Below are positions 35,246-36,253 of a DNA stretch of 64,000 nt, one piece after another. Origin of the DNA: Escherichia phage Esco_phi_B-01; sequence record OP292222.1. One strand, written 5' to 3'. Each line of letters starts with the position of its first letter. Positions within the stretch are counted from its first letter, which is position 1. The notes below the pieces were generated by a model, which did not search any database, was not told the origin of the DNA, and saw nothing but the letters and a program-made list of their open reading frames with translations. Position numbers and translations under genes: made by a program.

Positions 35246-36253
35246 TTAATAAGGGAAACTAACCATTTTAACCAATATAGGTTTATTAGAATCTACACTG
35301 CGCCCGTGTTGAAATACCGTTATTTCTGAAATTGTTTTAGAACCCCATTCCTTTAAGGTTATATTAATAGGACGTAGCCCGTTATATGCCGCACTTACTA
35401 TAACAAATGAGCCTGTAGGAGACAAAGTCTTAGTTCCGCCACCGGTAGTAACCGTTCCACCCGAAACACTAGGAGCAACAAAGTGATAATCACAATATCG
35501 GGTAGTCCCACCTTTACTTAAAATGCTGTATTCTATTTGGTTGTTAACCAATCTAACTCTAAGAACCGTATTGGCGACCCCAGGTATTTTTATTTCGCCG
35601 TACCCAGCAGCAACGTTGGTATACTTATGGAATGAAAACAAATCTGTACCATCTTTACCAGGTTCGCCTTGAGGACCCTGAGGACCTAGAGGGCCAGTAG
35701 CTCCGTCAAGTCCATCAATCCCATCCACCCCAGGAGGACCTTGAACACCTTGCGGACCCTGCTCACCATCTTTACCCGGGATACCCTGTTCGCCTTGTGC
35801 ACCCTGAGAAGCCAATAAGGCCCAGTAAAGGCTGTTTTCTTCAGCAGGATTATTACCGGTAGAATCCTGAACGCAAAAATAAGAAGCCCCATTGTACCCT
35901 ACTGCATCATCCTTAACATAGGCTGTTGCAGCACTCCATGTTCCTTTCCAATTTAGACCCACAGGGCCTACAGGACCAGCCGGGCCTCTCGGTCCTACAA
36001 TGCTTTCACCTTTAGGGCCAGGGATACCAGGGGATAACATTTCTTCGGATATCCCCAAATGAGCCAGAACTTCAGCTCTTCCGGATTTACTAACCAAGCC
36101 TAAGCCATACGAATTACTCCCTACCAATCTTGCCGGGTTTATAAGACTTTCTTTAGTAAGAATTTTTTCAAAAGGGATAACAGTATCCGATTCCTTTAAA
36201 GCAATACCGGAAAAGGTCCCTCGACCGTCATGACCAAAAATAGAATCTGCCAT
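35246..36253 (-). CDS. collagen-like repeat protein with CBM5/12-like motif
   Basis: 335 aa; uninterrupted 17-triplet Gly-X-Y run and a shorter run; between them [26 protein letters not shown]..YWALL resembles a chitin/carbohydrate-binding module. Confidence 0.75.
   Translation of the reverse strand: [335 protein letters not shown]

Follow-up and report, generated by a model that had tools for sequence, protein, structure and literature searches.

We analysed a 64,000-nucleotide stretch of DNA from Escherichia phage Esco_phi_B-01 (sequence record OP292222.1), hereafter called the window, which is a T4-type coliphage segment with Escherichia phage JS10 (Dhakavirus) as its nearest relative (92% DNA identity over window positions 34000-37700). 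On its minus strand, the window carries a gene for a collagen-like fibre protein of 335 residues (35246-36253), identified from the list of open reading frames (ORFs), from its JS10 ortholog EpJS10_0176 and from its match to phrog_5073 (E 1.5e-69). The partner gene, which encodes a short Hoc paralog of 286 residues that we call Hoc2 (34374-35234, minus strand; phrog_1149, E 3.7e-46), starts 11 nt past the fibre stop codon. Taken on its own, the fibre gene is an ordinary phage collagen-like fibre that has already been deposited, in GenBank as the JS10 'tail fiber-like protein' and in PHROGs as a member of an existing family. The new element is the conserved linkage of the fibre and Hoc2 genes together with its head-module context, and of this module and context we found no description in the searchable literature.

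To the left, this cassette is flanked by Hoc1, the canonical long Hoc (469 residues; 32920-34329, plus strand; phrog_1149, E 1.5e-120, with Pfam immunoglobulin (Ig) domains), which is placed in the T4 order inh-hoc. To the right and divergent from the fibre gene lies gp24.3 (36293-36535, plus strand; Pfam DUF2774, E 1.4e-30), at a position shared with JS10, T4 and the Dhakavirus QL01, and rnlB follows. A bidirectional intrinsic terminator (AAAACGGGAGAGC-GAAA-GCTCTCCCGTTTT; 34342-34372) separates the convergent genes hoc1 and hoc2. As the original prediction stated, T4 has no gene at this place: T4 and QL01 both show the order inh-hoc-24.3-rnlB, and because their gap between hoc and 24.3 spans only about 100 bp, the roughly 2-kb cassette of terminator, hoc2 and fibre gene represents an insertion or deletion with respect to these two genomes. 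Fibre and hoc2 are jointly missing from T4, QL01 and most other Dhakaviruses.

The fibre protein is built from five segments, all encoded on the minus strand. Its N-terminal domain (residues 1-75; 36029-36253), marked by the motif FGHDGRG...IPF..ILTKES...YGLG...LGISEEML, is the presumed virion anchor. It is followed by a short collagen run (about residues 76-99; 35957-36028), a CBM5/12-fold module (residues 100-150; 35804-35956), a long collagen run (residues 151-204; 35642-35803) and a C-terminal tip domain, an Ig-like β-sandwich (residues 205-335; 35249-35641). This order of anchor, collagen, optional CBM knob, collagen and tip is typical of a modular fibre. The original prediction had claimed one uninterrupted Gly-X-Y run of 17 triplets and a shorter one; both are real, with 18 unbroken triplets in the long run by direct count and 3 + 5 triplets, separated by a two-residue IV break, in the short one. 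The Pfam Collagen profile (PF01391) is matched above its gathering score (41.4 bits versus a cut-off of 27.2) and recurs in all 42 of 42 aligned relatives; the long run also matches collagens in the PDB. No DNA-level tandem repeats were found under the collagen run, and each fibre domain occurs only once within the window. In an AlphaFold2 monomer model, the CBM-like and C-terminal domains reach a predicted local distance difference test (pLDDT) score above 90, and the C-terminal domain folds as a generic Ig-like β-sandwich, for which structural comparison gave no informative neighbour. The N-domain (pLDDT 39-77) and the collagen segments score low, as is to be expected when a trimer is modelled as a monomer. 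The fibre is probably homotrimeric, and its collagen segments would form a triple helix. At a collagen rise of 0.286 nm per residue, the two collagen segments would measure about 7 nm and 15 nm and form a thin stalk. The fibre tip could thus project well past the Hoc fibres, which are 18 nm long according to the literature.

The module between the two collagen runs, which the original prediction likened to CBM5/12, has the small β-sheet chitin-binding-domain fold of this group, and the resemblance thus holds at the level of fold. The CBM_5_12 profile (PF02839) detects it just below the gathering cut-off (23.2 versus 26.2 bits; profile positions 1-28 of 44), and 36 of 42 relatives match the profile at E <= 0.01, the best at 1.9e-9. 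Three aromatic residues, W102, Y112 and W144, are conserved in the module and look like core residues. The module is missing from close relatives, as in Pantoea phage Phynn and in a comparison of the homologs P0141 and P0142, and is therefore not essential to the fibre.

The N-domain is rare. An exhaustive search of 1.84 billion representatives turned up about 17 protein clusters that carry it, in each case at the very N-terminus, and all clusters that were traced to their source belong to T4-like phages; a word-index search with the N-domain alone gave no match. Long proteins that repeatedly matched residues 46-75 turned out to be TPR-repeat proteins sharing only 'GRAEVL..LG' and were rejected as chance helical-repeat similarity. 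Downstream of the N-domain, the homologs carry collagen of widely varying length, between zero and three CBM modules, and C-terminal domains of at least three unrelated types. The Phynn fibre (L011 2783-3502, 239 residues) has its N-domain fused straight to a C-terminal domain, with neither collagen nor CBM, and P0141 and P0142 are near-identical except for a CBM-plus-collagen block (281 versus 410 residues); from these variants, stalk and knob emerge as optional cassettes. The JS10-type C-terminal domain, in turn, follows different N-termini in VR25 (Gaprivervirus), A7_1 (Vequintavirinae) and phage ES (Drexlerviridae), with 38-56% identity, and the short N-terminus of VR25 and A7_1 is similar to the N-terminal half of the JS10-type N-domain. 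Since a constant N-domain is combined with at least three C-terminal types, the same tip stands behind three N-termini, and collagen and CBM are gained and lost, the sequences point to a classic fibre with a lineage-specific anchor, an adjustable spacer and a horizontally exchanged distal tip. The tip domain appears to have been swapped horizontally among fibres of unrelated coliphages.

Hoc2 has kept the capsid-binding domain of Hoc. It aligns to T4 Hoc residues 222-370 (E 3.6e-16), the region that touches the centres of gp23 hexamers (PMC10385173), and its capsid-binding motif W.GWWV.DEI...QESRNGYI, which contains the invariant columns, lies C-terminal to the Ig-like domains. The AlphaFold2 model of Hoc2 (pLDDT 84.7) comprises two Ig-like domains and one α/β domain, with RB49 Hoc (3shs) as the best fold match. 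Hoc2 proteins form their own clade apart from Hoc1 and have a distinctive N-terminal Ig domain (Ig1). Minimal Hoc2 forms, in Cronus (166 residues), in the uncultured context L021 (195 residues) and in L023 (200 residues), retain only Ig1 and the capsid-binding domain. On an uncultured T4-like contig (L019 5888-6175; logan:DRR173096), Hoc1 has shrunk to a 95-residue capsid-binding domain alone, with Hoc2 (268 residues) and the fibre both intact, which suggests that Hoc2 can be the main Ig-bearing decoration.

Fibre and Hoc2 genes are linked well beyond the window. All annotated relatives have a short Hoc-like gene after the N-domain gene and on its strand: JS10, dhaeg, CGG4-1 (Gelderlandvirus), Cronus (Roskildevirus) and Aeromonas phage 65.2 (Emmerichvirinae), where the pair adjoins tk instead of gp24 or rnlB. 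Of 50,697 phage records, 22 contain the fibre N-domain and 24 the Hoc2 Ig1 domain; the two occur together in 19 records (14 phages), and they are adjacent and on the same strand every time. Inspection of the exceptions revealed a diverged N-domain fibre beside Hoc2 in ABTNLsp5, a collagen-less diverged N-domain fibre beside Hoc2 in Phynn, where the pair lies away from gp24 and rnlB, and truncated, decayed remnants in PspYZU05 and AP1; TH15, a Hoc2-only match in the record search, was left out of these checks. In uncultured contexts the pair was present in four of four cases, with the gene order swapped once (L021). Altogether, across about 20 T4-like phages, cultured or not, every intact gene with a JS10-type N-domain adjoins a Hoc2 gene of the same orientation, and the linkage outlasts both relocation (65.2, Phynn) and order swap (L021). 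This conserved pair strengthens the earlier suggestion that the gene and the Hoc proteins form a possible surface-adhesin island. A natural fusion of fibre and Hoc was not found among the 13 retrieved Hoc2 homologs. In phage IME08 (L009 797-1984), Hoc2 occupies its usual site and a collagen/CBM gene lies 1.5 kb away, after gp24b; as annotated, this gene begins inside the collagen region, without an N-domain, and the layout could result from a rearrangement, reflect a pseudogene or be an artefact of assembly or annotation.

Relatives of the fibre in T1-like phages offer a second line of evidence. The match to phrog_5073, labelled 'tail fiber protein', covers only residues 4-202 of the fibre and profile positions 139-312 of 519, and in ES and Rogue1 the full-length phrog_5073 genes have the head maturation protease gene on one side and that of the major head protein on the other. 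Mass spectrometry of CsCl-purified Rogue1 virions detected gp21 at 59.5% coverage; of the three bands analysed, the other two were the major head and the major tail protein, and the study does not assign gp21 a place within the particle (Rogue1 paper). A T1-like fibre homolog is thus a virion protein with a head-module gene context, and far from being established as non-virion, as the original prediction allowed for homologs, Rogue1 gp21 has experimental standing as part of the particle. Rogue1 gp21 and other Drexlerviridae collagen-CBM proteins have the core of collagen, CBM5/12-like module and collagen in common with the window fibre, and phage ES also shares its tip domain (38% identity). 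They differ in their N-terminus: ES, Rogue1, P0003 and P0014 carry a different one of about 95 residues, to which the window protein has no match, and the T1-like phrog_5073 proteins have no Hoc partner. The N-terminal 140 or so residues of the T1-like collagen proteins (ES, L013 4942-6402; Rogue1 gp21, L016 3386-4831) match phrog_22681, 'DNA polymerase'. The Rogue1 paper already noted that the JK06 homolog was mislabelled 'hypothetical DNA polymerase I', and this mis-annotation has spread, for example to phage Sadiya.

The window fibre is almost identical to its JS10 counterpart, EpJS10_0176 (ACL78402.1; 99.7% amino-acid and 99.5% nucleotide identity), from which it differs by a single substitution (S69T) and 5 nucleotides, a number so small that it ruled out a dN/dS estimate; no functional study of the JS10 protein was found in the literature. 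The same ORF sequence is also present, identical, in another NCBI record. JS10 matches the window in gene position and in its downstream hoc paralog, EpJS10_0177 'hoc', and differs outside the fibre: across window positions 32239-37657, nucleotide identity is 99.5% for the fibre gene, 97.9% for inh and 97.4% for hoc1, and drops to 92.2% for hoc2 and 82.4% for rnlB. Because of these two lower values, the window phage is a mosaic relative and not JS10 itself. The 122-residue ORF EpJS10_0174, which JS10 has between rnlB and 24.3, is missing from the window; together with the uneven identity, this absence points to a recent recombination whose breakpoints fall inside the cassette.

The genes of the pair have recognizable expression signals. 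The fibre gene is preceded by a ribosome-binding site, AGGAG (36260-36264, minus strand), within the block TTAACTTGTAAACAGGAG, which is conserved in JS10, VR25 and dhaeg; this conservation is probably due to the ribosome-binding site together with the -35 box of the divergently oriented 24.3 promoter. Hoc2 has its own ribosome-binding site, GGAGG, at 35239-35243, and the gap of 11 nt between the genes fits the co-transcription that the original prediction considered probable. Near the fibre gene, late-promoter sites occur only with one mismatch (36639, AATAAATA). A strong bidirectional terminator hairpin (AAAGGGACC-TTAC-GGTCCCTTT; 37663-37684) lies between the convergent genes rnlB and gp24b and would, judging from its position, isolate the fibre-hoc2 unit from gp23-gp24 late transcripts. 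Further left, the uvsW-inh intergenic region contains back-to-back late promoters TATAAATA at 32198 (plus strand) and 32212-32219 (minus strand), which would serve inh-hoc1 and uvsW. Two other features of the window deserve mention. It encodes two tandem gp24 head-vertex paralogs of 426 and 427 residues (37684-38964 and 38964-40247, minus strand; compare 24a/24b of JS10); two gp24 copies are also present in VR25, Cronus, CGG4-1 and QL01, and this duplication is therefore not tied to the fibre-Hoc2 cassette. Among ORFs sized like T4 baseplate and neck genes, roughly at the T4 wac position, lies an ORF of 827 residues (53733-56216, minus strand), which may encode an enlarged fibritin; the T4 wac product has 487 residues.

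We consider it highly probable that the fibre protein is a virion fibre. That it serves as an accessory adhesin displayed on the capsid through Hoc2 is a proposition to which we give roughly even chances at best. In its full form, our proposal is more tentative still: a subset of T4-like phages (Dhakavirus, Gelderlandvirus, Roskildevirus, Ishigurovirus and uncultured relatives) may possess a two-component head-fibre system with exchangeable tips, in which a trimeric collagen fibre is attached by its N-domain to the distal Ig domain of a Hoc2 adaptor. Hoc2 would dock at the centres of gp23 hexamers in the manner of Hoc, and its distal N-terminal Ig domain would hold residues 1-75 of the fibre. 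This domain would anchor a modular, probably homotrimeric accessory fibre, whose two triple-helical segments would form the stalk, interrupted by the CBM5/12-fold knob, and whose C-terminal β-sandwich would be the distal tip. Such capsid-borne collagen fibres could act as auxiliary, reversible adhesins for putative ligands such as bacterial envelope or mucosal glycans, and would not be the receptor binder that triggers infection. The genetic signs of capsid association are the constant adjacency to Hoc2 and the head-module position in T1-like phages.

Several observations weigh against this display through Hoc2. In the CBM-like module, the canonical binding tryptophans are missing: the Trp-Trp pair of the CBM5 of Chi60 aligns with Q129-D130, and the loop of residues 129-143 contains no tryptophan in the window protein or its relatives (in ChiA1-type CBM12, the loop tryptophan is W687). 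Seating a trimer on a monomeric Hoc2 would involve a symmetry mismatch, the confidence of the AlphaFold2 model for the N-domain is low, and VR25 has a different short N-terminus beside a different Hoc2 N-terminus. A mirror-tree test of N-domain against Hoc2 Ig1 was suggestive and not significant (Mantel rho 0.37, p = 0.077), with a rho of -0.16 for N-domain against the Hoc2 capsid-binding domain. Experimental placement in the virion is limited to the T1-like homolog, and literature on virion proteomics of JS10, VR7, CLB_P2, Cronus and CGG4-1 or on T4-like head fibres yielded nothing on the fibre gene. Moreover, the fibre family clearly can serve on tails, because the VR25-type short N-terminus, joined to the same tip domain, occurs in the tail-fibre gene cluster of A7_1 without a Hoc. 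The window protein may accordingly be an auxiliary tail, baseplate or neck fibre beside gp34-37, gp12 and wac, with Hoc2 as an unrelated decoration in the same accessory cassette, and the gene would then simply add to the accessory side fibres. The family is labelled 'tail fiber' throughout the databases, and the same label is given to phrog_5073 and to many PHROGs with collagen; tail fibres often contain collagen motifs, and an N-terminal anchor with a C-terminal binding domain is standard tail-fibre logic. These labels, however, derive from similarity, and no experiment behind them was found in the literature. In no T4-like genome does the fibre gene lie in a tail-fibre or baseplate cluster, the A7_1 homolog being the only family member that does; it stays beside Hoc2 in about 20 phages despite relocation and order swap, and the T1-like homolog is encoded in the head module. 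We regard a tail location as the main rival reading, less likely than display on the capsid.

A capsid location could also come about if the fibre bound the capsid directly by its own N-domain, at three-fold or quasi-three-fold sites or at the gp24 vertices, with Hoc2 as a separate, co-selected protein that makes no contact with it. SPP1 gp12, which binds hexamers, is a precedent for this arrangement, the head-module homologs of T1-like phages without Hoc show that the family can work without a Hoc partner, and the fibre gene comes straight after gp24b in both Cronus and IME08. Yet the T1-like proteins have a different N-terminal domain, the intact JS10-type N-domain occurs only beside Hoc2, and the minimal Hoc2 forms keep exactly Ig1, so that direct binding seems improbable. 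It is less probable still that the gene encodes a non-virion protein, produced inside the infected cell or on its surface; such a protein might be collagen-like, displayed or secreted, and have an effect on superinfection or aggregation. The absence of a canonical T4 late promoter (TATAAATA) directly upstream of the fibre gene on the minus strand, where the closest one lies at 40276, before gp24a, speaks for such a role and against a capsid fibre alike, as does the restriction of proteomic support to the T1-like homolog and not the T4-like carriers. The N-terminus, on the other hand, is a conserved globular domain and does not resemble a signal peptide, the Rogue1 homolog is present in purified virions, and both the tight coupling to a capsid-binding protein and the fibre architecture argue for a part of the particle.

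Display through a Hoc2 adaptor would have consequences beyond this phage. The conserved pairing provides a concrete hypothesis for the role of 'second Hoc' genes in T4-like phages, and it offers a possible reason for the presence of a collagen fibre gene among the head genes of both T4-like and T1-like phages. Were the proposal true, the known capsid decorations would be extended by an adaptor-mediated head-fibre system, the Hoc site could be functionalised non-covalently through an adaptor, giving the capsid long, swappable adhesins, and many phrog_5073 'tail fiber' proteins, including the abundant Rogue1 gp21, would actually be head fibres, which would correct a widespread annotation. A swappable tip on a Hoc-docked collagen stalk would also be a natural scaffold for phage display and for tuning how therapeutic coliphages adhere; gut studies make use of the groups to which JS10 and CLB_P2 belong.

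Parts of the proposed arrangement have counterparts in known systems. One of these is SPP1 gp12, a collagen-like trimer that a tailed phage displays at the centres of its capsid hexamers, as in our model, and for which a role in host adhesion has been suggested. Unlike the fibre of our model, gp12 is described as attaching to the capsid without the help of an adaptor paralog; it is far smaller and is not known to carry CBM or tip domains, and any sequence similarity between the two would be limited to the Gly-X-Y repeats. The head fibres of phi29 (gp8.5) and of phage 7-7-1 are dispensable trimeric capsid fibres that are thought to aid initial attachment; they attach to the capsid directly and have no sequence relation to the window fibre, and the phi29 stalk is an α-helical coiled coil, not collagen. 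Collagen stalks flanked by globular domains, like those of the window fibre, are known from EPclA and EPclB of E. coli prophages, which are experimentally trimeric and triple-helical, with an N-domain proposed for virion attachment and a C-domain for binding and trimerisation (PMC3368898). Their flanking domains are PfN, PCoil, PfC and Pf2; they are side tail fibres of lambdoid prophages and have neither a CBM5/12 knob nor a Hoc partner. The adaptor half of the model has counterparts in T4 Hoc and in the shorter Hocs, which combine Ig-like domains with a conserved capsid-binding domain, as Hoc2 does. For the second, shorter Hocs of Muldoon and PG7, it has been proposed that the capsid-binding domain is reused for displaying other ligands, in a 2023 Hoc study that makes no mention of collagen or of a partner gene (PMC10385173). 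In PG7, the ligand, a GDSL lipase, is fused to the capsid-binding domain, whereas the candidate ligand in the window is a separate protein encoded next door.

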